From Candidatus Saccharimonadota bacterium (GTDB taxonomy: Bacteria > Patescibacteriota > Patescibacteriia > 2-12-FULL-60-25), in assembly GCA_016699205.1 (NCBI GenBank), contig CP064964.1, positions 1,050,255 through 1,082,254 on the forward strand: a DNA stretch of 32,000 nucleotides. The letters run 5' to 3'. The notes below the pieces were generated by a model that was not told the origin of the DNA, did no database searches, and saw only the letters and a program-made list of their open reading frames with translations. Within the stretch, counting starts at the first letter, position 1. Every line of letters starts with the position of its first letter. Of the stretch, positions 18,645 through 32,000 are shown piece by piece. A program made the position numbers and the translations under genes.

Positions 18645-19412
18645 ATGTCCCTGTCTGTTCCTTTCGAGATCACCGAGCGCATCAAGGGTGCCACGGACGA
18701 GATCGTCGATCACGACACGTTCGTGAGCATCTGTAAGACGTCCTTGCCCGGCGCCGTGAAGATGTACGAGCTCATGTGCGAGCGCCTCAAGAGCGAGCCG
18801 AGCGGCTCGTATCGCAAGTGCTTTCACGGCTTCACCGATGTCGAGCGCGGCCATGTCATCCGCGCCTGCTACGGTGATGCGATCAATCGCGAGCTGAATC
18901 TCCACTACGGCATCGTGCTCGTGCGGACGGCATCCGGACGCGTGGTCGGCTTCACGCCCGAGTCATTCTCGCGCGAGGACTTCCGTTCCCGCGTCTTCAA
19001 CCTCTCTGCGCAGAAGGCACATGGCGACGATCCGGTGGAGACGTCGGCGATCATCGACCACGCGGACACGCTGCGCGAGATCGAGCGGCTCTACCCGCTC
19101 GCCTACGCCTGCATCGCATCGCACGAGGGTCGTTCGTTCAACCACCGTGCTACCGAGCAGCCGCTCTTTGGGCAGCTGGTCGAGATGATCTCCATCCGTC
19201 CGTACCGCTTCCTGCTCGAGGATGCGTTCGGTCCGATCGCCACGGTCAACTGCTGCAAGCAGGCGGGACGCGGCAAGAAGGGCAAGGAGAAGTCCAAGGA
19301 CGAGAATACGCCGTCCAAGCCCAGCGACACGCTGGGCGAGCTGTCCTGGGACTTCATCGTGAGCCGGACGCATCAGCTCCAGATGCAGGAACCGGCGATG
19401 TTCGACTGCTGA
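18645..19412 (+). CDS. Hypothetical protein A (255 aa) of the GC-rich island; distant paralogue of 19555-20316
   Basis: The SD AAGGGGG lies upstream and the codons are strongly C/G-ending. A strong terminator follows. Lys-rich linker GRGKKGKEKSKDE near the C-terminus. No family recognised. Confidence 0.65.
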   Translation: MSLSVPFEITERIKGATDEIVDHDTFVSICKTSLPGAVKMYELMCERLKSEPSGSYRKCFHGFTDVERGHVIRACYGDAINRELNLHYGIVLVRTASGRVVGFTPESFSREDFRSRVFNLSAQKAHGDDPVETSAIIDHADTLREIERLYPLAYACIASHEGRSFNHRATEQPLFGQLVEMISIRPYRFLLEDAFGPIATVNCCKQAGRGKKGKEKSKDENTPSKPSDTLGELSWDFIVSRTHQLQMQEPAMFDC

Positions 19413-19436
19413 TCAGTCCGCCTAGCGGACTTCCTC

Positions 19437-19476
19437 GCCGACCCACCCGTAGAAGCCGGGTGGGTCGGCTTTTCTT
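19437..19476 (+). terminator. Rho-independent terminator after island ORF A
   Basis: 13-bp perfect stem gccgacccacccg (19437-19449) / cgggtgggtcggc (19457-19469), a 7-nt loop, then ttttctt. Confidence 0.8.
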
Positions 19477-19554
19477 ATCGTCTGGACAAGGGCGAAAGCT
19501 CGGCGTAGCGTTAATCCTTGTCGCCGGCTCTTGACTGGCGATAACGAGGCAAAC

Positions 19555-20316
19555 ATGCACATTCCGAGTGTGTCACCTGAGCTTGCTGAAAGCGTTCGCG
19601 TCAATGGTGCGATCAATGATCAGGAGTTTGGAGGCCTTATCCTGCACTGGTTTCCGGCGGCTTGGACGCTGTGTTTTACGCTCAGGCGTCAGACACATCC
19701 GAGGCCCGTGTCAGACAGACGCGAGGAGGATGAGACCGTGCCGGTGAGGCTCTTGAATGCTCTTCTGCATAAGTCCGAGCATCATAGCCCGCGGCCGGTT
19801 GAACCGATGATCAGACGGGTCTCGATTCCCGAGATGGTCGGTATCAAGGCTGTGTCCCAGGTGTACCAAGTCATGGCCAGCGATGCGATGCATCGATGCG
19901 CACAAACCGTTCATGAGGGAATGTTCCGACTGGAGTCGGAAGAGATCCTCGTGATGATTCCTGAAGGTCTCAAGGCTCCTCCGATCGAGCTTCCTCCTCT
20001 TGCTTTCATTGAGGAGCGCTATCATCTTGCCTGCGACCAGATCCGCATCGTCCTCGCGGACATGGAGGATTCAGACCGAGGGTACGGTCTTCTCGACTGT
20101 TCCAAGGCGCCGCGCAGTCTCGAACAGCTCGTGATGCTGATGGCGATTTATCCGTATCGTATGCGCATCGAGCGCGAGTACGGCGTTGAGCTGGCCTATC
20201 AGTGGCCGGGTATCCTCGCTGCCGCACCAGCTGGTACGAGAGGCCGTCTGCGCGAGTTCCGATCTGCCGCCGAGCAGATCCTCGCGATCCATCGCAATCC
20301 CAAGAGCACCGTCTGA
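19555..20316 (+). CDS. Hypothetical protein B (253 aa) of the GC-rich island; distant paralogue of 18645-19412
   Basis: I prefer ATG 19555 (GAGG 6 nt upstream) over the listed TTG 19531. It shares colinear motifs with ORF A (see findings). The start is uncertain because the N-terminal ~90 aa are Pro/Arg-rich. Confidence 0.6.
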   Translation: MHIPSVSPELAESVRVNGAINDQEFGGLILHWFPAAWTLCFTLRRQTHPRPVSDRREEDETVPVRLLNALLHKSEHHSPRPVEPMIRRVSIPEMVGIKAVSQVYQVMASDAMHRCAQTVHEGMFRLESEEILVMIPEGLKAPPIELPPLAFIEERYHLACDQIRIVLADMEDSDRGYGLLDCSKAPRSLEQLVMLMAIYPYRMRIEREYGVELAYQWPGILAAAPAGTRGRLREFRSAAEQILAIHRNPKSTV

Positions 20317-20322
20317 ACGATA

Positions 20323-20356
20323 AGAGCCCCGTCATGTATTCTGCTGACGGGGCTCT
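20323..20356 (+). terminator. GC-rich hairpin after island ORF B (terminator-like, poor U-tract)
   Basis: 12-bp perfect stem agagccccgtca (20323-20334) / tgacggggctct (20345-20356) with a 10-nt loop. It is followed by gatgttat. Confidence 0.5.
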
Positions 20357-20466
20357 GATGTTATCCAAAATGGAATACAGTATCCGGACTTATTGCGTAC
20401 GCTTGACGTATCCGACTGAATATAGTAAGCCTAAAAAGCGTTGCATCGTGGAAAGGATAGGTCGGT

Positions 20467-21367: not shown

Positions 21368-22374
21368 TTAATCTCCTGTCATCTGTTTCTTTAGAAGCGT
21401 CACATTTGGAACCGGCCAAGGATCGATCTTGTGACGTCTGGCCAAGGCGACGCTTGTCGAGGCTCCCAGGGCAATAGCGGTCCACGCTTCTTGCAGACGG
21501 TTTTTGCCGATCACATCGATGGTGATGGCACGAATGCCGTTTTTCTGCAGGATTTCTGCCGTTAGCTTGATGCGTTTGTGATTGCGCGGATGATAATGCT
21601 CGGATTGAAAGAGAACAGCGACGAGCTGTTTTTTGACGGAGTGGGGAAATGTAATACCTTCCAAAAAATGATGGTCGAGTTCTGGAATCACTTGTGCTGC
21701 GGAAAGCTGTTTTCCATTTTCGTTTATTTGATTATTGAATACATGCGCCGCGCCAACGAGATGCTCGGCCGACATGAGTAAGACAAAAGATTTTTCCAGA
21801 TGTCGAGCAAGATCAAAAGCCAAGCCCTGATCCTGGTTTTCAATAAGCTTCGCGACTTCATTGATTTTCCGTTCATCGATTTTTATGATTCCGGTTTTGG
21901 CGAGGATTCCGGCGATGCCAATCGTCATATAGCCGATGGCCATGCGCGGTTGATTGGAGGGATTCTCAACGGGATCGATCACGAGTGTTGGGAATTTGTG
22001 TTTTTGGCTAGCGCAAGTAACTCGCCGCCATTGGTCATGACGATGATGCGGGCTTTGCGGCGGATGGCTTCACGGGCTGCGGAAAGCGTCTCTTCTGTTG
22101 TGCCGGAATAGCTAGAAAGAATGACGAGCGTGTCGCGGCCTACGTGGCTCGGGAGACGATAGTCATTGCTGATTTCAAAAGGGATTGAGATCTCATCACG
22201 GAAGACGGACTGAATCACATGCGCGCCCAAGGTTGATCCGCCCATGCCAGAGACAACGATAGAAGCCGGCTTGTGATGACTTGTAGGAATGTTAAGGCTT
22301 GAGACTTGGCGCCAGGCATCGCGTAGCTGCGCGCCGAGACGCAAATCGTCGGATAAAAGAATAGGAGCCTTCAT
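21368..22374 (-). CDS. Bifunctional phosphoglucose/phosphomannose isomerase (SIS domain; apparent 1-nt frameshift at T5 run 22001-22005)
   Basis: ORF 21979-22416 (real start MKAPILL at 22374) has SGMGGSTLGA and LSSYSGTTEETL. ORF 21368-21982 is the C-terminal PGI/PMI half. One extra A in gccaaaaacac gives ELLALAKKHKFPTLVIDPVENPS. Confidence 0.8.
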
Positions 22375-22385
22375 GGCTCCTATTC
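22351..22385 (-). terminator. Terminator hairpin of the DUF1761 gene that also contains the SD and start codon of the PGI/PMI gene
   Basis: On the minus strand: gaataggagcc (stem) atgaa (loop) ggctcctattc (stem), then ttttatcc. The ATG at 22374 is in the loop and AGGAG is in the 5' arm. Confidence 0.6.
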
Positions 22386-22406
22386 TAGCACAAATAATTA
22401 GATTTT

Positions 22407-22832
22407 TTAGCGCCAAACAGCGAGGATCACTCCCATGATGATGAGTGAGACCAAGCGGTATCCGGTGTTGATGAAGTAGAGCTTCCAGGGTTTATTGCCC
22501 CAGAGCTGCTCATCCATTTGCACAGGCGCAAAAAATCCGAGCCAGGTCCAGAAACCAGACATGACGCCGCCGACCCAACCAAATGTCTGCGTATAGGTCA
22601 TCGCAAATTCTGTTGTAAATGATAGGACGTAGGCTAAAACAAGCGAACCAATGCTCATCAGGGCATAGGTCTTATTCATGCCTTTCATCGCCTCCTTGCT
22701 CATTTTGGATGGATCAATACCCATTAGTTTCATCCAAGGTTTGCCAAATAAAGGGCCGTACCAAAGGAACCCGAGAACGACGGTGGAAATGGCGGCGACG
22801 AGTATAGCGAGGTAGTTGGGGGTAAAAGTCAT
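22407..22832 (-). CDS. DUF1761-family membrane protein
   Basis: 141 aa, four predicted TM helices. LGFLWYGPLFGKPWMKLMG at the N-terminus is typical of DUF1761. Confidence 0.75.
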   Translation of the reverse strand: MTFTPNYLAILVAAISTVVLGFLWYGPLFGKPWMKLMGIDPSKMSKEAMKGMNKTYALMSIGSLVLAYVLSFTTEFAMTYTQTFGWVGGVMSGFWTWLGFFAPVQMDEQLWGNKPWKLYFINTGYRLVSLIIMGVILAVWR

Positions 22833-22847
22833 ATGGACAGCATTCTA

Positions 22848-24575
22848 TCAGCTTTTACGTTTTCCGTGCATCAACATGTCGACAGCTTTGTCGAGTGTAC
22901 CGGCAGCCGTCAGTTCGCCGTTGTTTACAAAGAAGATGCCGTCAGCTTTTTCGATCGTGTTCAAGCGATGGGCGATGATGACCTTTGTTGTCGATCCTGG
23001 AAGCTGATCGAGGGCTTCTTGGAGCAATTGCTCCGTGACGGTATCGATGTTGGCGGTGGCTTCATCGAGAATCAGGAGTTCTGGCTTGCGCAAGACGGCA
23101 CGCATGAAAGCGATGAGCTGCTTTTGACCCAAGCTGATGGAGTCGGCGCCGGAGACGGGCGTGTCGACGCCTTTTTCAAAGCGGGCGAGGAGACGCTCAA
23201 GGCCCATCGAGTTGATCGTGTCGATTTTTCTTGGTGGCTTGCTGCGGCAAAATCAGGATTGGCGTAGAAGATGTTTTCCAGGACGGTGCCCGTGAACAAG
23301 AATGGTTCTTGCAAGATGAAGCCGATTTTTTGGTGCGATCGCTTTCAGGGTAGGAGCGCAGATCGCGGCCATCGAGCAGGATGGTGCCGGAGGTTGGATC
23401 GTAGAGACGCGCCATGAGCGAGGCAGTTGTGGTTTTGCCGCCGCCTGTCGGACCGACGAGTGCGTAGGTTTTGCCGCGTTCCAAATCGATGTTGATGTTG
23501 CGCAAGACATCCGGACGCTCTGGATAGCCAAAGTGTACGCCTTGGAATTGTACAAGGGCTGGATTGGCGGCCTTTTCGCCTTCAATCGTCGGCAAGTCCA
23601 TTGTTTCATCCATGATTTCGAGACGCGATCCCAGGCGGCTAATGCGAGCTGGAAGGAGTTCCAGAGCATGGCGATTTGGCGGAGCGGACCGTAGAAGCGC
23701 TCGACATAGATCAAGAAACTCAAGAGTAAGCCAAGCGTAAGGCTTTGTTGGGAGACGAGCAGGATGCCGTAGCCGAGAACGATCAGAATCGCCAAGTTGG
23801 AGAAAAGATCGTAAATCGGGGAGTAGAGGGCGCTGGCGATGCCGGCGCGTGTTGCTGCTTTGAAGTTGATTTTGTTGGCGATGGCAAAGCGGTCGCGGAA
23901 GAAGTCGCGGCGATCAAATGCGACAACGACTTTAAAGTGTTCCAAGCTTTCTTGAATTTCTGCGCTCAAACCGCCGGTTGCACGCAAACTTTCTGCATTG
24001 CGCTTTTAACCCAGCCGGAAGTGGCTTGCGTAAAGAGATAGAGTGCTCCGGCCGGGACTAGCGCGGCGAGGCCAAGATGCCAGTTCAATGAGAGCAGGAA
24101 GATACCGGAACCGACAATCATCACGATGCTCATCGTGAAACGCACCAAGGTTTCGAGAAGAATTGGTTGAGTTTGTCCGTGTCGTTGTTGATGCGGGAAA
24201 TCAAATCGCCAGCTTTATTTCGGTTGAAGAAGGCGATTGGTAGCGATTGAGTTTGGCAAAATCATGTTGCGCAAACGGAAGAGCATGCGCTGACCTACAC
24301 GGCCCATGAGCTGCATCTGCCAATAGCTTGTGCCGAGGGCGATCAAGAATGCGACGAGAAGCGCTGCGACGGTTGTAAAGATGCCTGGATAGTTTGCGGT
24401 GCGTACATAAGCATCGATGGCGTGACCAAAATGTAAGGCACGCTCAAGTTGATGCCGGAAGCGATGAAGATCGTAAGCGCCGTCAATGCCAAAGGACCAA
24501 TCTCCGGTTTGAGATAGGGGAGAAGCTTGCGGACACCGACGAGCGCGGATGTCTTTTTGCGGGCTTATCGTTCAT
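22848..24575 (-). pseudogene. ABC exporter (fused permease + ATPase), disrupted by at least 9 single-base frame disruptions
   Basis: Fragments 22848-23207, 23072-23314, 23197-23613, 23253-23987, 23966-24148 and unlisted pieces up to ATG 24575 can be stitched into one about 575-aa ABCB-type protein (MNDKPAKKTSALVGVRKLLPYLKPEIG ... GPTGGGKTT ... ISLGQKQ ... LLILDEATA ... IIAHRL). Shift sites (+ coordinates): 24554-24558, ~24426, 24258-24261, ~24240, ~24152, ~24001, ~23620, 23326-23331, 23225-23229. Confidence 0.85.
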
Positions 24576-26300
24576 ATTGGTTGGTGCTGCGCTGGGAATT
24601 GTAGATCTGGACGTATTCCGGAGAGATTTCCATCAATTTGTCGTGCGTGCCTTGAGCCAAGACCTCGCCCTCCATCAAAAAGGATGATGTGGTCGTAATC
24701 GCGGACAGAAGAGATTTTGCGTGACCGAGACAAGTGTGACGCTTGGATAGTTTTTGCGGACATTCTCGAGAATGCGGTGTTCCGTGTTGGAATCGACGCG
24801 GGCGGTGAAGTCATCGAGCAAGAGGATTTTTGGTTTGATAGCGAGAGCTCGTGCGAGCATCAAGCGCTGCTTTTGTCCGCCAGAGAGACTTGTCCCGCGT
24901 TCCGAGACGAGGGTGTCGAGACCGTTGGGGAGTGTATCGAGGAAATCTTTGAGTTCTGCGGTTTCAATCGCTAAGTCAAAATCTTCTTTGGCCACCTCAC
25001 GACCAAAGGCGATGTTTTCACGAACGGTTAAATTGAAGACGATGCTGTCTTGGAAGACCATGCCGATTTGCGAGTGCAGGCTGCGGCTATCGTATTCTGA
25101 GACGGATTTACCATCGTACAGAACTTCGCCGGAAGTTGGCGGCGTGAGTCCGGTGAGGACATTGAGGAGCTGGGTTTTTCCAGCAGCTGTCGGACCGAGG
25201 ATGGCGGTACGGGTTTTGGCCGGAAGGGAGAAACTGACATGCTTCAAGACAGGCGTTTCGCCAAAACGGATGTTGACGTCGCGCATCTCGATATGGCCGT
25301 CGATCGCTGCTTTCCATTCACCGTCGTTCTTGATTTCCGGAGCATCGAGCACTTCTGCGATACGGATATAGGAGGCGTTTGAGCGGGCCATCATGTTGCT
25401 CATAAAGCCGAGCATCAGCATCGGGAAGATGAGAATGCCGACATAGCTATTGAAGGCGGCGAGCTGGCCAATCGTCATTTCTCCCACGATCACAAAATGT
25501 CCGCCAAGACCAAGGATGACGAGTGTCGCAAGGCTGGAGATAAAGGTAATGAGCGGGATCAGGCTTGCAAAGACGCGCAAAATTTTGAGACCGTTTTCTT
25601 TCGCGTCCGTATTCACGACGAGAAATTTTTCCGTTTCCGATTGCTGGCCATGCAGAACGCGAATCAAGGTCGCGCCCAGAATACTTTCATTTATGGTTTT
25701 GTTCAGACGATCGATGATCATCTGCGATGCTCCAAACAATGCGCCGACTTTGGAGAAGATTCCGTAGAACATGAAGCCCATGATCGGAATGATAAGAAGA
25801 ACGGTTAAGCCAAGCTTCCAATCTGTGGAAATAAGCATGACGCTCGCACCAATCAAAATGAAAAGCGAAGACACGACAATGACCATGCCTTGCGAGACGA
25901 ACATTTTGATGGCGTCGATGTCGCTTGTGAGATTGGTGAGGAGTTTGGATGCCGTCGTGTTTTGGACAAAGGCAAAGCTTTGGCGGGAGATTTTGGCGGC
26001 CAACTGCTCGCGCAAATCGCTCGCGACACGTTCGGATGCAAATGCCTGGATGATGCCGAGGATGTAGTCGGAAATGAGCATCGTGGCACAGATCGCCAAA
26101 AAGGGGAGAGCGATGGCGACAAGGTTAAAACTTCCGCTCGTGTATGCGTCGATTCCGCCGGCAACCATACGGGGCAGCATTAAGCTCAAGCCTTTGCCGA
26201 ATATCGACAGGCCAAGCAAACCGATGATCCAGCCCTTGTATTTAGGGAGGAGGCTCATCAACGTATTTTTCTTTTCAGCAGGAGTCTTCTTGTTGTTCAT
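24565..26300 (-). CDS. ABC exporter (fused permease + ATPase), intact for about 530 aa, with two frame disruptions in the last ~50 codons
   Basis: I prefer ATG 26300 (MNNKKTPAEKKN) over the listed GTG 26321. GPTAAGKTQ (Walker A), LSGGQKQR and LLLDDFTA are present. After VTLVSVTQ the true frame moves to KISSVRDYDHIIL (shift near 24715-24718), then to MEGEVLAQGTHDKLMEISPEYVQIYNSQRSTNQYER* (shift near 24677-24681). The stop is at 24565-24567 and overlaps the next gene's start. Confidence 0.85.
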
Positions 26301-26314
26301 AAATAGGGTTAACT

Positions 26315-26661
26315 TCAGCACTTTCCAAAATATTTTTCGCCCCAGACAGCCATGTGCTTGAGGACGGGGAGCAGGTCTTTTCCTTTTTGGGTCAGATTGT
26401 ATTCCGTACGCGGAGGGACCTCAGAATAGATTGTTTTAGTGATAATGCCGAGTCGTTCCAGGTCGGAGAGCCGGTCGGAGAGGGTGGTTGGATTTACGCC
26501 ACCGGCTTCCGTTTGTAATTCATTGAAACGCAGGGTTTTAGCGAGAGCGCAAATAATAGCCTCGGAGTCCATTTGTCTCCGAGGACGGTTGTAGCAAAGG
26601 CTACGCATTTGGATTTGTTGTCTGATTCTTTGGGCATGATCTTGACGGTTTGGCGATCCAT
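26315..26661 (-). CDS. HxlR-family transcriptional regulator (apparent 1-nt frameshift near 26557-26561)
   Basis: ATG 26661 gives MDRQTVKIMPKESDNKSKCVAFATTVLGDKWTPRL (the HxlR N-terminal C..A...lGdKW motif). The listed ORF 26315-26608 continues IICALAKTLRFNELQ...VPPRTEYNLTQKGKDL. Total length with one added base is 116 codons. Confidence 0.8.
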
Positions 26662-26678
26662 GCTATATTTTTTATAGC
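26662..26678. promoter_or_regulatory. Palindrome GCTATA-N5-TATAGC in the hxlR/nitroreductase divergent region (candidate HxlR operator)
   Basis: gctatattttttatagc lies directly upstream of the hxlR ATG and 40 nt upstream of the nitroreductase ATG. Confidence 0.35.
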
Positions 26679-26717
26679 TAGTCAGTTTTTTTATAGGAAT
26701 TTAAGGACATTGTCAAT

Positions 26718-27353
26718 ATGAATGGTCAAGAAATCATTAAAGCGATGAACTGGCGTTTTGCTACCCAAGTATTCGATGCTTCAAAAAAGGTTTCCGATGA
26801 AGACTTGAAAACGATCCTCGAGGCCGCTCGATTGACTCCGAGTTCATTTGGTATCGAGGCTTGGAAATTTCTTGTTATCGAGAATCCGGAATTACGAGGA
26901 AAAATCCGCGAGGCAGCTTGGGGTCAGCCCAAAGTTACGGAAGCATCGCATTTGATTGTGATCGCACGTCGTACGGATGTTCGCGAGCACATTACGGATG
27001 AATTGCTCGCTCGCACCTCAAAGGCGCAGGGTGTCGGTCTTGAGGCTTTGGATGGTTTAAAGCAGATGGTGAATGGAAATATGGCAGGCCGATCAGATGC
27101 GGAGATTGATGCATGGACCAAGAGTCAGGCGTATATCGCGCTCGGGGTAATGATCGAGACAGCTTCATTGCTTGAAGTCGATAACGGACCGATGGAAGGT
27201 TTTGATCCGGCAAAAGTTGATGAGATACTCGGCTTAAAGGCTAAGAATCTTACCTCGACCTTGCTGCTTGCTCTTGGATATCGCGATGAACATGCTCCCG
27301 TGCGTCCCAAGTCCCGCCGTTCGATGGAAGAGGTGGTTGAATTCATCAAATAA
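26718..27353 (+). CDS. NAD(P)H nitroreductase family protein
   Basis: 211 aa. RFATQVFD, LEAARLTPSSFGIEAWKFLVI, and PMEGFD near the C-terminus are typical of the NfsB/FRase-type nitroreductase fold. Confidence 0.85.
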   Translation: MNGQEIIKAMNWRFATQVFDASKKVSDEDLKTILEAARLTPSSFGIEAWKFLVIENPELRGKIREAAWGQPKVTEASHLIVIARRTDVREHITDELLARTSKAQGVGLEALDGLKQMVNGNMAGRSDAEIDAWTKSQAYIALGVMIETASLLEVDNGPMEGFDPAKVDEILGLKAKNLTSTLLLALGYRDEHAPVRPKSRRSMEEVVEFIK

Positions 27354-27364
27354 ATTATATTCTT

Positions 27365-27883
27365 ATGCAACCAATGTACGCATTTAGCGTTCCTGTTTTT
27401 CAAAAGATGTTGAAGACGGCGTTGAATCTTTTGGATAAGGCCGAGGCGCATGTAAAGACGAATGGGGGAACGGAAGCGGATTTGTTGGAAGCTCGATTGG
27501 CGCCGGATATGTTTCCATTTGTGAAACAGGTGCAAATTGTTTGTGACAATGCCAAAGGTGCATCATCGCGTCTCGCGGGAGTGGAGAATCCATCTCATCC
27601 AGACACGGAGACGACGATTGCGGAATTGAAGGCGCGCGTAGAAAAGACGATGGCGTTTCTCGATACATTGAAAGAAGAGCAGTTTGCGGACGCGGCTGAT
27701 CGAAAGATCGTGCTGCCGTATTATCCTGACAAGCATCTCCTTGGAATGGATTATTTGCAGAGCCAAGCACTTCAGAATTTCTTTTTTCACGTCAACATGA
27801 TGTACGCGATCTTGCGTATGAAGGGCGTGCAGATTGGAAAAGCGGACTATATTGTTGATGTTCCGTGGCAGGCTGGTGCGTAA
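27365..27883 (+). CDS. DUF1993-family (DinB-like helical bundle) protein
   Basis: 172 aa. The FSVPVFQKML.....LLDKAEAH N-terminus, DMFPFVKQVQI, and NFFFHVNMMYAILRMKGVQIGKADY match DUF1993. Confidence 0.75.
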   Translation: MQPMYAFSVPVFQKMLKTALNLLDKAEAHVKTNGGTEADLLEARLAPDMFPFVKQVQIVCDNAKGASSRLAGVENPSHPDTETTIAELKARVEKTMAFLDTLKEEQFADAADRKIVLPYYPDKHLLGMDYLQSQALQNFFFHVNMMYAILRMKGVQIGKADYIVDVPWQAGA

Positions 27884-27911
27884 AGTAGCTATATAGAGAG
27901 AAAATAACCTA

Positions 27912-27942
27912 TTGACCCTGACATTGCGTCAGGGTTTATAGT
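27912..27942 (+). promoter_or_regulatory. MerR-type promoter: TTGACC-N19-TATAGT with a perfect dyad in the spacer
   Basis: TTGACC at 27912-27917 and TATAGT at 27937-27942, separated by a 19-nt spacer. The dyad accctgac (27915-27922) / gtcagggt (27928-27935) is the classical over-long-spacer MerR operator architecture. Confidence 0.75.
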
Positions 27943-27965
27943 ATGCAAAGGTTCAGGCCAAACCT

Positions 27966-28731
27966 ATGCCATATACGGTTAATCAATTAGCGAAGCTCGC
28001 CAGTATCAGCGTGCGCACGCTGCATCACTACGACCAAGTCGGGTTGCTTAAGCCTGCCCTGCTTCGCAAAAATGGTTATCGTGAATATGGGGAGACGGAG
28101 CTGCTTAAGCTTCAGCAAATTCTGTTCTTTCGCGAGTTGGATTTTCCGTTGGAGGATATTAAACGGATTATGTCCTCGCCGAGTTTTGATACACGGCAGG
28201 CGCTGCTGGATCATCGGAATATGATCGAGCTGAAAAAGAAACGTCTTTCCGGATTAATCAAAGCGATCGATAAAACATTAATTCAACTAGAAAAAGAAAC
28301 CTATGGACGAGCAAGACTTGAAGGAGACGTATGACACTTTTGGTGAAGATACCGTCAAGGAGTACGCCGATGAGGTGAAGCAGCGTTGGGGGAATACGGA
28401 AGCGTACAAGCAGTCGATGGAGCGCTATAGCAAAATGACTAAGGCGGACATGGAGGAATATAAGAAAGGTGCGGACATCTTCATGAAGAAGGCGGCGGAA
28501 GTCTCTGAAAAGGGTGCGCTTAGCCCGGAGTTTCAAGAGATGATTGACCAACACTTCAAATCGTTAAGCGCTTGGTATGAGCCGAACTTTGAGATGTATC
28601 GTGGATTGGCCAAGATGTATGTAGAGGATCCGTGGTTTGAGGCTTATTATGAGAAGTATAAGCCGGGGTTGGCGAAAGTGTTTAGTGAGGGGATGATCCA
28701 TTACGCGGATAAGAATGAGCCGAATAAGTAA
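27966..28731 (+). CDS. MerR-family regulator with TipAS-type C-terminal domain (split by a frame disruption near 28291-28302)
   Basis: ORF 27966-28334 is the MerR HTH plus coiled coil (YTVNQLAKLASISVRTLHHYDQVGLLKP). ORF 28303-28731 is a TipAS-like domain (FGEDTVKEYADEVKQRWGNTEAYKQS...). In TipAL/Mta-type proteins these are one chain. The second frame has a TAG at 28288-28290, so the shift lies in the A-rich run just after it. Confidence 0.8.
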
Positions 28732-28734
28732 AAT

Positions 28735-28765
28735 AAATCCCCGCTCTTGCGGGGGATTTATTTAT
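28735..28765. terminator. Bidirectional terminator between the MerR/TipAS gene and the convergent HEPN-motif gene
   Basis: aaatccccgc (28735-28744), tctt, gcgggggattt (28749-28759; one bulged C), with T-rich flanks on both strands. The minus-strand stop codon at 28758-28760 lies in the stem. Confidence 0.75.
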
Positions 28766-29248
28766 CGATGTAAGCAAAATACTTTCTTAAGAACGCGTTT
28801 GATGCCTCACTTATTGCGTCGAGTGAGATGTTCCAGAAGCCTCCATCGTCTGTGCCATGTGCGATATCTCCTTTATTTCTGAAATCCCATGCCTTTAGCG
28901 CCATGTTTATATCGCTTTTCTGACTTTGAGCAGTTTGCCTGTAAATATCATTCTGTCTTTACTGTTTATAAGATGATCCGAGGTACTCTTTCTTCTATCA
29001 ATGCTGGCACTTATTAGCTCAATACATTTAATAAAGTTTAGGGCAATCTCTAAAGTATTAAAATTGCCAGTATATCTATTTCGAGATGCGATCGTTATGT
29101 ATTTTATGCATCGCCTAAATACCCGATCAGTGCAGGCGAGATAGCGTTTGGATTTTGCAAGAAAGCCATTGGGTAAGTCCTTCGGAAAAAAATTTCTAAC
29201 GTTAATTAATGGTGCTGGTGGGCTTATTCTGATCAAACGTCCCCTCAC
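28758..29248 (-). CDS. Hypothetical protein with C-terminal HEPN-like RNxxxxxH motif (frame disruption between 28909 and 28958)
   Basis: ORF 28907-29248 (GTG start) ends at 28907. A second frame, open from 28958, reads RQNDIYRQTAQSQKSDINMALKAWDFRNKGDIAHGTDDGGFWNISLDAISEASNAFLRKYFAYIDK* and carries FRNKGDIAHG (Rx6H). The region is AT-rich relative to its neighbours. Confidence 0.5.
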
Positions 29249-29264
29249 TTTAAAAAGATTCCTA

Positions 29265-29678
29265 CTATCTCATAATCAAAATAGTTTTGGCGTCGAATAC
29301 GTTTCTTGCCAAGTTGTTGAGTTGTCGTTTTAGGGCGAGGGATAGGGAGGCTATTAGGTCAGTAAAGCGATCTTCTGCTTCTTTGAGAACGAAGTATAAA
29401 TTTTCTTCGCTGATCTCGGTGCTTACAAGGTAGGAAGATTCGAAAGTACGTATTGAAACTGGTTGTTGAGGATAATGTATGAAAGCATCCACGCCCTTAC
29501 TTAAAGAATGGCTAGCGCTTCTTTTTTCAATAATAGGAATCTCTGGCAGATCCCTTTCTAAAAAGGCGGTTGTCTTTTCAATATGACATTCTCCAATCTT
29601 CACTTTTCGCTCAGGTAAAAAATCGCCTAAGATTTTTGCGTAGACGATATATTTTGTTTTTTTTCGCTGCTCACTCAT
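29265..29678 (-). CDS. Hypothetical protein (137 aa), upstream partner of the HEPN-motif gene
   Basis: ATG start, ending in TAG TAG. It is AT-rich with no recognisable motif, and sits 16 nt upstream of the next gene's GTG. Confidence 0.55.
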   Translation of the reverse strand: MSEQRKKTKYIVYAKILGDFLPERKVKIGECHIEKTTAFLERDLPEIPIIEKRSASHSLSKGVDAFIHYPQQPVSIRTFESSYLVSTEISEENLYFVLKEAEDRFTDLIASLSLALKRQLNNLARNVFDAKTILIMR

Positions 29679-29797
29679 AGAATTTTTTCACTTCATCCGT
29701 TATCGCAACAACCATATCTCGATCCAGCTTTTCGCATGTCCAGCAGACCGGCATCGCATGGTTCTGATCCTTCTATATTTTGGATCCCAGAAGCGAT

Positions 29798-30216
29798 TCA
29801 TGTATTACTTTTTCGATCTCTATATTTCTGGACCAAGAATCCAATGAAGGTTCCGATCACATAATACCCAAGAAACAAGATCAGTGTCCTGAAGACAAAA
29901 GAATATCTCAACCGTATTGCGACAATTTGCTTCCCGGTGTCATTACTTGTTTTTCACAACCGTTTTCTTCGGTCCAATAGGTGCAGACCGGAACGGTGTT
30001 GGGACAATATGGTTCCGTGTTAACCATGAATCCGTTCAGTAGAGAATAGCTATGGCCAGTAATGAAAGAAAGATAGATCGTTCCGTTAGTTAAAACGGGA
30101 CTCAGACCGACGCGTGGCGCCGATATAAGAACGATCAAGAAAAACACATAGAGGCTGGCGCATGCCGCTAGCCCCGCGAGTCCGCCTTTGAGCCAAAGTG
30201 ATCCCGACTTTTTCAT
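29798..30216 (-). CDS. Small Cys-rich membrane protein (N-terminal TM, Cys-rich middle; possible C-terminal TM after a frameshift at ~29909-29912)
   Basis: I prefer ATG 30216 (MKKSGSLWLKGGLAGLAACASLYVFFLIVLI), 1 nt after the DUF1428 stop. The Cys-rich segment is EPYCPNTVPVCTYWTEENGCEK. The listed stop is at 29908. The overlapping frame from TTG 29911 to 29798 encodes a TM helix (RYSFVFRTLILFLGYYVIGTFIGFLVQKY). Confidence 0.5.
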
Positions 30217-30217
30217 C

Positions 30218-30607
30218 TTATTTCTTCCAAAGCTCCACCACTGGCTTGAATCCACCAACAGCCATACGTTTTTCATCAAATGGCATGACCATCTTTTCTT
30301 TAGGATGCTTTTCAATCCAGTCGTTCATTTCTTTCATGACCTTTTTATTTACTTGATCGCGATGCTTGCGCGACTTGTAGATGATAAAGGAATACCAGAT
30401 TGTTTCACTTGGCTTGGGTTTGACGAGCTGCATGAAGGTCGTTGGCTTTTGTCCACCCATGCTTGGGTTCATGTCATCGCCGATACATTCAACGTAGGCG
30501 ACGGCGCCATGTTTCATCCAGGATTTACCACCTTCTTGGGCCATCTTGCGATACGCGGCAATATTCTTCTTTGGAACCATGAGTACGAAACCGTCGATGT
30601 AGGACAT
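30218..30607 (-). CDS. DUF1428-family protein
   Basis: 129 aa. MSYIDGFVLMVPKKNIAAYRKMAQEGGKSWMKHGAVAYVECIGDD is the characteristic DUF1428 N-terminus. Confidence 0.8.
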   Translation of the reverse strand: MSYIDGFVLMVPKKNIAAYRKMAQEGGKSWMKHGAVAYVECIGDDMNPSMGGQKPTTFMQLVKPKPSETIWYSFIIYKSRKHRDQVNKKVMKEMNDWIEKHPKEKMVMPFDEKRMAVGGFKPVVELWKK

Positions 30608-30611
30608 AGGT

Positions 30612-30944
30612 TTAAGGATGATGATTAACTCTTCTTTTATCCAAGCGGTCGAGGCGGAGAATTCTAACGGCGGCGTAAATCACGAGGGCGATGACGAGGA
30701 AGTCGACAAAAGCCATGATGAACTCGCCGTAGAGGATCGAGGCACTGCCAATCGTCCAAGTGGCTGTTTTGAGACCGGCTGCTTTGCCCAGAGCCAGGCC
30801 GATAAGCGGGTTCAGTATATTCGTTACCAATGAGGAGACGAATTTTGAGATAGCTCCGCCGAGAATAAAGCCCACCGCCAAACCGACAACGCCTTGCTCG
30901 CGGATGAATTCCAAGAATCCATTCATGGGAGAGATTTTTTCCAT
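30612..30944 (-). CDS. mscL: Large-conductance mechanosensitive channel MscL
   Basis: FLEFIREQGVVGLAVGFILGGAISKFVSSLVTNILNPLIG, then a second TM helix and a charged C-terminal helix (RLDRLDKRR). An alternative start is ATG 30926. Confidence 0.9.
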   Translation of the reverse strand: MEKISPMNGFLEFIREQGVVGLAVGFILGGAISKFVSSLVTNILNPLIGLALGKAAGLKTATWTIGSASILYGEFIMAFVDFLVIALVIYAAVRILRLDRLDKRRVNHHP

Positions 30945-30970
30945 AGTGCTATCAGTATAGCGTTATGTTT

Positions 30971-31207
30971 TCAAAAATCTTCTTTTTCCTGCTTGCTCCA
31001 ACGTTTGATTTTGCCTCACGTTTACGTGCGGCTGATTCTGTTTTTGACGGCCGGCTCCAAGCGAGTGTGACAGGTCGATGGCTGCGCGTGTATGCCGCGC
31101 CTTTGCCGGCATTATTGCTTGAGAACGCGCTCGGCAACATTGGTCGAGATTCCCGTGTAGAGGCTGCTGTCACTGCAGCGCAGGATGTAGACGTGCCAGC
31201 GCTTCAT
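30971..31207 (-). pseudogene. GIY-YIG (UPF0213/YhbQ-like) small nuclease gene with two frame disruptions
   Basis: ATG 31207 gives MKRWHVYILRCSDSSLYTGISTNVAERVLKQ*. The next frame continues NAGKGAAYTRSHRPVTLAWSRPSKTESAARKREAK. The first frame then resumes IKRWSKQEKEDF*. Shift sites are ~31111-31118 and the T4 run at 31009-31012. Confidence 0.7.
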
Positions 31208-31209
31208 AA

Positions 31210-31866
31210 TTATTGGGGCGGCAGAGCTCCGGTGCAACGCCAGTTGATGCTGGCTGTTTCTGTCTGTTCATTGACGACGCACGCAGGGAAACAGCCGGGC
31301 TGAGTTGCATTCAAGTTTGCATCGAACCACCACGTTTTCGAATTTGGATTGTAAGTACCTTTTCCGATGGCGCCGCCTCCTTTAATACACGTGTTCTCCG
31401 CAATTTGTCTTGCATCTGTTTCCGACATGACGCTTTTTGGTATTGGATTTGTTATGGGAGCTGTCTCCGGTTGTAGATTCAAGCTCGTGATTGTCAACTG
31501 GAGGACGGTAGCGAAAATCACCCAAAGTAAATAGGGGATATTGATGAGAGCGATCCATCGCTGATGGGGATAGATTGATATGAGCGCCCAAATGAGCGTC
31601 GCAAGCACCAGTAGTATATCGAGAGCTGCGAGTAGGTTGTTCTGTAATCCAAACTGCAGTGGAGTAAAGATTGCATTGAAGCAAAGATTGAGGAGAAATG
31701 GCCAAATAATGTTGATCGGAAGCCGTTTTTTCGCTGCGAGATAAAAGACGTAACCAAACGAGATGGCGATGACGATATAAAGGACGGTCCAAACCGGTCC
31801 AAAAAGATATGAGGGAGGTGCCCAACTCGGTTTTATAAGGGTTTGATACCAAAGGTAGGTGTCCAT
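31210..31866 (-). CDS. tspO: TspO/MBR-family tryptophan-rich membrane protein fused to a C-terminal ~65-aa four-Cys soluble domain
   Basis: The N-terminal ~150 aa carry WYQTLIKPSWAPPSYLFGPVWTVLY and NIPYLLWVIFATVL (TspO hallmarks). The C-terminus is DARQIAENTCIKGGGAIGKGTYNPNSKTWWFDANLNATQPGCFPACVVNEQTETASINWRCTG. Confidence 0.8.
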   Translation of the reverse strand: MDTYLWYQTLIKPSWAPPSYLFGPVWTVLYIVIAISFGYVFYLAAKKRLPINIIWPFLLNLCFNAIFTPLQFGLQNNLLAALDILLVLATLIWALISIYPHQRWIALINIPYLLWVIFATVLQLTITSLNLQPETAPITNPIPKSVMSETDARQIAENTCIKGGGAIGKGTYNPNSKTWWFDANLNATQPGCFPACVVNEQTETASINWRCTGALPPQ

Positions 31867-31876
31867 AGAGCTATTC

Positions 31877-31905
31877 TTGCACGATCTGACTTATTCCGCT
31901 AAGAT
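31877..31905 (+). promoter_or_regulatory. Putative tRNA promoter TTGCAC-N17-TAAGAT
   Basis: TTGCAC at 31877-31882, a 17-nt spacer, TAAGAT at 31900-31905. The tRNA 5' end is at 31925. Confidence 0.5.
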
Positions 31906-31924
31906 TCTGCCGCAATGAATGTCC

Positions 31925-32000
31925 GGAGGGGTCGCATAGTGGCCTAGTGCACTTGCTTGGAAAGCAAGCATACCGCAAGGTATCGAGAGTTCGAATCTCT
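31925..32000 (+). tRNA. tRNA-Ser (anticodon GGA), truncated by the window end in the T-stem
   Basis: Acceptor GGAGGGG; D-arm gcat/agtggccta/gtgc; anticodon arm cttgc/ttGGAaa/gcaag; long variable arm atacc-gcaa-ggtat (class II); T-arm gagag/ttcgaat/ctct... Confidence 0.8.

Follow-up and report, generated by a model that had tools for sequence, protein, structure and literature searches.

Locus organization

The window analysed here, a 32,000-nt stretch of contig CP064964.1 of a Candidatus Saccharimonadota bacterium, contains on its minus strand an AT-rich locus (28758-29678) that is read below as one gene of a rare HEPN-like family. In the deposited sequence the locus is divided among several open reading frames (ORFs): a 137-aa ORF (29678..29265, minus strand) that terminates in TAG TAG, a GTG-start 113-aa ORF (29248..28907, minus strand) that begins 16 nt past the TAG TAG, and a 48-aa ORF in another frame (28904..28758, minus strand) that bears LKAWDFRNKGDIAHGTDDGGFW. 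A 27-aa ORF with a CxxC motif (29671..29754, minus strand) overlaps the start of the 137-aa ORF. The G+C content (GC) is 0.39-0.41 over 28.8-30.0 kb compared with ~0.50 for the whole window. An earlier reading made from the letters alone (the sequence-only reading) had described the AT-richness, the ORFs, the TAG TAG with its 16-nt gap and an RN-x5-H motif, all of which were found in place. The features of the locus are given below, with residue numbers of the protein after correction of three frame breaks, unless a homologue (P0001 or P0002) is named.

28734..29778, no strand assigned: strain-specific replaced segment (1,045 bp, GC 39.4%), delimited by blastn break points and boundary sequences

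28739..28754, minus strand: intrinsic-terminator-like hairpin of 6 G-C pairs followed by a T-run, 4 nt past the stop codon

28758..29678, minus strand: single gene of a rare HEPN-like family, composed of the ORFs of 137, 113 and 48 aa plus ~25 third-frame codons

28857..28880, minus strand: RNKGDIAH, an Rx6H HEPN-type motif with R268, N269, D272 and H275 (predicted catalytic)

28916..28919, minus strand: frame break 3, a coding-strand A4 run (CAGAAAAGCG) that is probably A5; adding an A gives KVRKSDINMALKAW

29012..29029, minus strand: KCIELI motif in predicted HEPN helix 2, with the family-invariant K218 and E221 (K214 and E217 of P0001)

29229..29678, minus strand: predicted N-terminal alpha/beta domain, approximately residues 1-150, from the AlphaFold2 strands and helices over P0001 residues 2-148

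29252..29256, minus strand: frame break 2, a coding-strand T5 run (ATCTTTTTAAAG) that is probably T6; adding a T gives GIFFKVRGRLIR, equal in length to GVFFKKGKQSIR of P0002

29328..29331, minus strand: frame break 1, a coding-strand A4 run (CCTAAAACG) that is probably A5; adding an A gives LKTTTQQLGKKRIRR, which matches LKTTYKKLRTIKIKR of P0001

29779..29801, minus strand: start (~23 nt) of the resident HIT gene, beyond which there is no further sister-strain homology

One gene in place of two

The sequence-only reading had favoured a two-gene cassette and had also pointed out that fusion of the pieces would yield a single-chain HEPN protein of ~300 aa; the second proposal proved to be the right one, with homologues that are single ORFs. 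With the concatenated pieces as the query, only five proteins were returned (P0001-P0005, 304-321 aa), each a single ORF that covers 87-97% of this query (96-97% of the fused query) in a collinear alignment, and the full-length homologues are all single proteins (304-410 aa) collinear with the 137-, 113- and 48-aa pieces. The corrected ORF has tblastn matches of 35-46% identity, end to end over ~310 aa, and is 46% identical to P0001 over 314 aa. Read from these alignments, 28758-29678 is one gene for a predicted protein of ~307 aa, not two genes, and what had been taken for a 137-aa partner forms the N-terminal domain of this one protein.

Between the 137-aa and 113-aa ORFs, ~25 codons (LGKKRIRRQNYFDYEIVGIF) are read in the third frame, in which the TAG TAG junction becomes LGKKRIRRQNYFDYEIVGIFLK, where the homologues have KLGKRRIKRGDEFYSFEIVGIFIKK. 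Because this junction stretch is encoded in the third frame, the locus has three frame breaks, each a 1-nt deletion, and the removal of one base at the TAG TAG, which had been thought enough to fuse the ORFs, is not. Breaks 1 and 2 flank the TAG TAG region, and each of the three repairs betters the local match to the homologues, with LKTTTQQL aligned to LKTTYKKL of P0001 after repair of break 1 and the 11-residue V-to-W spacing of the homologues restored by repair of break 3. The three single-base additions produce 307 codons without a stop (stop-free shuffles of the same sequence, 0/20,000), and the corrected 307-aa protein retains all six of the family-invariant residues described below. Programmed frameshifting was also considered and was rejected because the homologues are plain single ORFs.

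A toxin-antitoxin or defence cassette of a 137-aa partner and a ~160-aa HEPN toxin has in its favour that the deposited sequence does hold two main ORFs 16 nt apart and that a small upstream partner is common for HEPN toxins (PMC3710099). We nonetheless give it almost no credence: both parts lie in one ORF in every full-length homologue, conserved residues (EIVGIF, LIR) span the junction, the junction peptide sits in the third frame, and the few short matches look like fragments, with the 137-aa one (representative-library entry P0018) being the window's own ORF. An exact sequence look-up of the 137-aa ORF returned no record.

Sequencing under-calls or a decayed gene

The frame disruption had earlier been taken to mean that the module may be inactive or mis-assembled. 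Of these, mis-assembly agrees with the error profile of the assembly, and inactivity is probably wrong. The profile was taken from a comparison of window positions 22897-32000 with a metagenomic contig that is 97.5% identical (L008), in which 22 indels were found, 18 of them deletions and 4 insertions in the window, mostly in homopolymers. Deletions of 1 nt in runs of at least 5 nt are systematic, with examples at 23229, 23331, 24007, 24261, 24558, 30638, 30977, and 31012. Runs of at least 5 nt in L008 are shortened in the window in 13/42 cases (5 nt, 7/30; 6 nt, 5/11; 7 nt, 1/1), compared with 0/321 of the runs of 3-4 nt. Several genes that are whole in L008 are broken in the window, including the MerR/TipAS regulator at 27966-28731 (255 aa in L008, 122 + 142 aa in the window, with a 2-nt deletion at 28290), the second ATP-binding cassette (ABC) exporter at 23197-24700 (578 aa in L008, many fragments in the window), and a small membrane protein at 29798-30315 that is split by indels. 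An SIS/PGI gene (21368-22416), which lies outside the stretch aligned to L008, is split as well. As the three breaks match the homopolymer error profile of the assembly, they are likely to be sequencing or assembly under-calls in A/T homopolymers, and, breaks of this kind being most likely single-base under-calls, the gene is probably intact in the organism.

The alternative is that the copy is a real pseudogene, an acquired HEPN gene that lost its function through three slippage deletions, for instance owing to the cost of the toxin. The deposited sequence does contain the three frame breaks, the window gene is without the restriction-modification (R-M) partner that is present in many relatives, and true slippage mutations would fall in homopolymers as well. 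The indels are also unevenly spread, with 11/22 crowded into 23.2-24.7 kb within one ABC-transporter gene, a pattern that could be true decay. A family copy on an unrelated metagenomic contig is likewise split into two ORFs (140 + 167 aa; L029:3326-4239). Against this, each of the breaks lies in a run of the length class shortened at 23-45% frequency, in conserved genes and intergenic DNA included, the 307 corrected codons of a 39%-GC sequence hold no stop, and six of six invariant residues are kept, such that a decayed gene is judged unlikely.

Distribution and conserved residues of the family

When 1.84 billion representative proteins were searched with a family profile, 45 clusters were returned at E<=1e-3, 14 of them at E<=1e-30. 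A one-genome-per-species collection (185,579 genomes) contained five loci, all in metagenome-assembled genomes of the candidate phyla radiation (CPR)/Patescibacteria and distributed among Gribaldobacteria, Paceibacterota/Paceibacteria, and Saccharibacteria. No relative was found in the IMG/VR viral contigs, a plasmid megablast with the locus gave no match, and scans of Pfam, NCBIfam, and PADLOC with the separate ORFs, the fused protein and 30 members gave no meaningful match, the isolated library matches (E 0.002-0.8) being limited to one member each.

Conservation was scored in an alignment of 30 sequences with identity down to 17%, in P0001 numbering. The invariant residues (Y190, K214, E217, R269, D273, and H276) all lie in the C-terminal half and make up two conserved patterns, K-x2-E and R-[N/S]-x2-D-x-A-H, in the second of which N is replaced by S in some members and A275 is near-invariant. 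The R and H from which the sequence-only reading had argued are accordingly conserved among homologues, R, D, and H being invariant. The N-terminal part has only A7, G11, P15, I27, A97, and Y130 as near-invariant residues and no polar residue conserved family-wide, for which reason PD-(D/E)xK and other enzymes were rejected as candidates for this domain. The distant members (~400 aa) bear an additional C-terminal extension of ~80-90 aa (alignment columns ~470-590).

Predicted fold of the C-terminal domain

An AlphaFold2 model of P0001 built from the 30-sequence alignment reached a predicted local distance difference test score (pLDDT) of 82 and a predicted template-modelling score of 0.80, while an earlier model from five sequences (pLDDT 56) was too poor to use. 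In the model the C-terminal helical domain has helices at 182-199, 205-222, 256-272, and 289-308, with an insert at 223-255 that contains a beta-hairpin and a short helix. The invariant K214 and E217 sit in helix 205-222, R269 lies near the end of helix 256-272, and H276 is in the loop that follows, ahead of the next long helix (289-308).

HEPN families are mutually very divergent and are described as sharing an Rx4-6H motif whose R is followed directly by a polar residue (N, D or H), an acidic residue that is conserved in helix 2, and a variable insert that separates helix 2 from helix 3 (PMC3710099). The pattern R-[N/S]-x2-D-x-A-H has the Rx4-6H spacing and the polar residue, the alignment and predicted structure have the helix-2 acidic residue and the insert, and the placement of the R at a helix end and the H in a loop in the predicted structure agrees with the published description (PMC3710099). 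With these four published features all matching the model and the conservation pattern, the C-terminal domain is, as modelled, likely a HEPN domain, an assignment with no sequence-profile support. The RN-x5-H motif is real, and the active-site residues are predicted to be those of K-x2-E, which lies in helix 2, and of R-[N/S]-x2-D-x-A-H, where helix 3 ends.

The higher-probability Foldseek matches in the PDB are HEPN proteins, though only the C-terminal half aligns and the E-values are weak (0.2-2). The top match is AF_0298 (2hsb; probability 0.98, template-modelling score 0.66 on target length, weak E-values), and others are HepT (6m6u/5yep/7ae8), Csm6 (6tug), the sacsin HEPN domain (3o10), and YutE (1ylm), again with weak E-values; low-probability noise, including gyrase/topoisomerase fragments and kinases, is also on the list. 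A Foldseek comparison with viral structures (BFVD) brought nothing credible. The similarity to the HEPN clan that the sequence-only reading had asked for by profile or structure is hinted at by structure, at weak Foldseek E-values, and was not found by profile in Pfam, NCBIfam, or PADLOC. The N-terminal domain had no structural match and may be a sensor or regulatory domain.

A strain-variable slot in sister genomes

Metagenomic contigs L008-L013 encode the neighbouring DUF1428 protein identically and are 97-98% identical to the window on both flanks of the locus. The order of genes in these sister strains is TspO, GIY-YIG, MscL, DUF1428, a 137-aa membrane protein, HIT, variable genes, MerR/TipAS, DUF1993, nitroreductase, HxlR, and two ABC exporters. 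Homology between the window and the sister strains stops 22-23 nt into the HIT gene (29779) and picks up again where the TipAS gene ends (28733), and the 1,045-bp segment between these points contains the HEPN-like gene, its own terminator and ~100 bp upstream. The terminator-like hairpin at 28739..28754 falls within the foreign segment, and the sister loci L008 and L011 have another hairpin at this place.

All of the sister strains have a HIT-family gene (HIT domain confirmed for the L008 gene) that is missing in the window, where the ~23-nt start and a diverged 27-codon C-terminal relic remain. The relic is the 27-aa CxxC ORF, which had been put forward as a possible real gene: by tblastn it is 48-60% identical over 25-27 aa to the C-terminal ends of the HIT proteins of L008-L012 and is on this account read as a 3'-end remnant of a diverged HIT gene that presumably came with the incoming DNA, and not as a member of the module. 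A CxxC micro-protein was rejected on the same match.

The cargo of the slot differs among strains. L008 has HIT and proteins of 161 and 162 aa (L008:9379-10419), and L011 has HIT, a 180-aa protein and a 267-aa HEPN protein of the Ymh family (PF09509, E 1.9e-30; L011:2084-2887, plus strand). As L011 bears Ymh there, the slot is strain-variable and has taken up two unrelated HEPN-type genes, and the stretch from HIT to MerR/TipAS looks like a small defence hotspot. The AT-rich segment is foreign in composition (GC 39.4% vs ~50%) and, by the blastn break points against the sister strains, strain-variable; it is not conserved core synteny of normal composition. Read from these break points, the gene came by horizontal transfer and replaced resident genes between HIT and MerR/TipAS. 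The donor was likely a lower-GC genome, given that the family loci have 29-40% GC.

Genomic neighbourhoods of relatives

Relatives of the gene were found in the following contexts.

P0002 loci (at least 24 contigs; L014-L021): hsdM, a 148-aa ORF, hsdS, family gene, hsdR, with genes that overlap or lie 5 nt apart

L003: hsdM, Bro-N, hsdS, family gene, hsdR (HSDR_N, E 2.7e-40)

L028: hsdS, family gene, hsdR

L026 and L033: hsdS upstream of the family gene, on short contigs

L022: helix-turn-helix (HTH) gene, C5 methylase, R.HinP1I, a 166-aa ORF, Vsr, family gene

L005: two C5 methylases and an HNH protein adjoining the family gene

L037/L038 (distant member): family gene (L037:4974-6206) overlapping the end of the gene for a 906-aa Eco57I-like type IIG enzyme

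L031: T5orf172 protein and N6/N4 methylase adjoining the family gene

L001: island with a serine recombinase, an HTH protein, and DUF5677

L029: island with an AAA_21/AAA_15 ATPase, DUF5677, and an integrase

L004, L023, L030, L032, L035, L036, and L039: transposases or no recognisable neighbours

R-M genes are directly adjacent to the family gene in about half of the distinct contexts, and the slot between hsdS and hsdR recurs among family proteins that are only ~40% identical to each other. These R-M neighbourhoods are consistent with the defence role that had been proposed for the module. No adjacent nucleotidyltransferase gene was found in the window or among the loci with typed neighbours; the sequence-only reading was right that this is not a classical HEPN-MNT pair, and the supposed partner is part of the same protein.

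Several further observations concern the genes around the family gene. The 148-aa ORF between hsdM and hsdS is conserved in the P0002 operons (L014:2951-3397, with equivalents in L015-L021) and has no family match, and the Bro-N protein of L003 (L003:6973-7794) occupies the same position between hsdM and hsdS and is another R-M-embedded gene. A DUF5677 gene lies within two genes of the family gene in both of the closest relatives (L001:11657-12289, plus strand; L029:4284-5075, minus strand), and in L001 a 225-aa ORF overlaps the stop codon of the family gene. The DUF5677 protein and the 225-aa ORF may be functional partners in the L001/L029 sub-branch.

Comparison with known HEPN systems

In the E. 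coli prr locus, prrC occupies what we take to be the position between hsdS and hsdR. The embedding in type I R-M operons that recalls PrrC is a property of relatives (L014-L021, L003, and L028) and not of the window copy, which is without adjacent R-M genes. PrrC is genetically linked to the type I (type Ic) R-M system EcoprrI, silenced by it, and activated by a phage anti-restriction peptide (PMC1484252, PMC2610378), and its C-terminal anticodon nuclease is a HEPN-superfamily member for which R and H are essential (PMC3710099). No sequence similarity between PrrC and the family is detectable, and in place of the N-terminal ABC-type NTPase of PrrC the family has a ~150-aa alpha/beta domain with no ABC or P-loop match. 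As it has no ABC NTPase domain, the protein is not PrrC or RloC.

ApeA is similar to the family in being one chain whose N-terminal region is non-catalytic and whose C-terminal HEPN domain has its active-site residues in helix H3, and some of its members are embedded in R-M operons (PMC3710099); it cuts tRNA anticodon loops in abortive infection (bioRxiv 10.64898/2026.01.26.701840). Whereas ApeA has three domains (N-terminal, 1-198; Mid, 199-309; HEPN, with catalytic R502) and forms decamers or dodecamers, the family proteins are 307-321 aa with one N-terminal domain and match no Pfam (E<=1) or PADLOC model. With no model match, a smaller size and no Mid domain, the protein is not ApeA. HEPN_Apea and ApeA_NTD1, which we take to be Pfam models, are among those without a match, if they are in the Pfam copy searched.

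Three other systems share some of the features. Ymh (PF09509, Hypoth_Ymh) belongs to a HEPN family frequent in R-M operons (PMC3710099) and occurs in the identical chromosomal slot of the sister strain L011, but has another N-terminal part and no sequence or profile similarity to the family. HepT structures are among the best Foldseek matches of the C-terminal domain; in contrast to HepT/MNT, the family has no MNT partner and carries its HEPN domain fused to an N-terminal domain, not paired with an antitoxin gene. DARNA (PD-T7-3) is likewise a single-chain HEPN protein with a separate sensing domain and a tRNA anticodon nuclease (bioRxiv 10.64898/2026.02.22.705581), but has its HEPN domain at the N terminus, with an Rx4H motif, and is 456 aa long with a helical C-terminal domain. 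The family is probably a separate, uncurated one within the HEPN superfamily, and no description of an R-M-embedded HEPN family of such type, nor of HEPN defence in CPR, was found in the literature.

Proposed function

Collectively, the gene is interpreted as encoding an intact single-chain HEPN-type RNase defence effector of ~307 aa that belongs to a rare family and was horizontally acquired, with the frame breaks as under-calls, and we put the probability of this reading at about 65%. A role as an RNase, the formation of dimers, the nature of the trigger and a part in defence are inferred by analogy with PrrC, ApeA, and DARNA. On this analogy, the HEPN domains would dimerise to form a composite, metal-independent RNase site with the R and H, infection, sensed by the N-terminal domain or an associated R-M complex, would switch on this otherwise latent site, and the activated enzyme would cut tRNA or other RNA such that the infection is aborted. 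That many relatives lie between hsdS and hsdR suggests that the family gene may be a back-up to or a guard of restriction.

Several results weigh against this interpretation, in addition to the uneven indels, the homopolymer preference of true slippage and the weak Foldseek E-values noted above. No curated HEPN-clan family was matched at E<=1 in Pfam, NCBIfam, or PADLOC by the window protein or the 30 members, a sequence-profile search of the PDB gave only chance-level matches (E>1), and hhalign of the family profile against a single Ymh protein (L011) and a single DUF5677 protein (L001) found nothing (probability 0.2%), an uninformative result. About half of the family contexts have no recognisable defence neighbour, and no R-M gene adjoins the gene in the window.

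Some of the same evidence bears on the possibility that the family is an R-M accessory without RNase function, whether a regulator, a DNA-binding specificity or assembly factor, or a HEPN-resembling helical domain of other catalysis. The close packing of the gene between hsdS and hsdR, where neighbours overlap or lie 5 nt apart, would suit such a role, as would the absence of profile similarity to any HEPN family and the weakness of the Foldseek E-values. The only polar family-invariant residues, on the other hand, form the HEPN active-site pattern in the right helices, and the gene also occurs next to type II systems, within mobile islands, and, in the window, on its own. An obligate subunit role is disfavoured because the gene is found without type I R-M, and we regard an accessory of this kind as quite improbable.

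A more specific version of the RNase effector is put forward only tentatively, as a proposition that may well not stand. It would make the family a new HEPN RNase family largely confined to CPR/Patescibacteria in the role of PrrC, latent, wired to type I and sometimes type II R-M, and firing when restriction is disabled, with a small alpha/beta sensor in place of the ABC ATPase and with exchange for other HEPN genes at a fixed slot.

Other features of the window

Outside the locus, GC rises to 0.57-0.64 at 18800-20400, compared with 0.50, and the plus-strand ORFs at 18645-19412 and 19531-20316 match the Pfam 'NucS shadow ORF' family (PF20704). As these shadow-ORF matches are on the plus strand, the real genes at 18800-20400 are probably on the minus strand and are possibly NucS-like and possibly foreign. 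The window also encodes parts of a type IV pilus (PilM, prepilin peptidase) and a DUF5671 domain, and a tRNA gene at 31925-32000 (plus strand; Rfam RF00005, 36 bits), not called by ARAGORN, is cut by the window end.

Implications

For the annotation of this genome, homopolymer under-calling probably accounts for the 'two-gene toxin module' and for several neighbouring 'pseudogenes' of the record. That single-chain HEPN RNases occur within R-M operons is well established, as represented by PrrC, ApeA, and the families of the 2013 HEPN survey. The present family, by contrast, is not in Pfam, NCBIfam, or PADLOC and is without a solved relative, and its five hits in the 185,579-genome collection are all in ultra-small CPR bacteria, of which the defence repertoire is poorly known. 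With proteins of ~320 aa and a strict placement between hsdS and hsdR, the family would offer a compact model for the coupling of an RNase to restriction without an NTPase domain.

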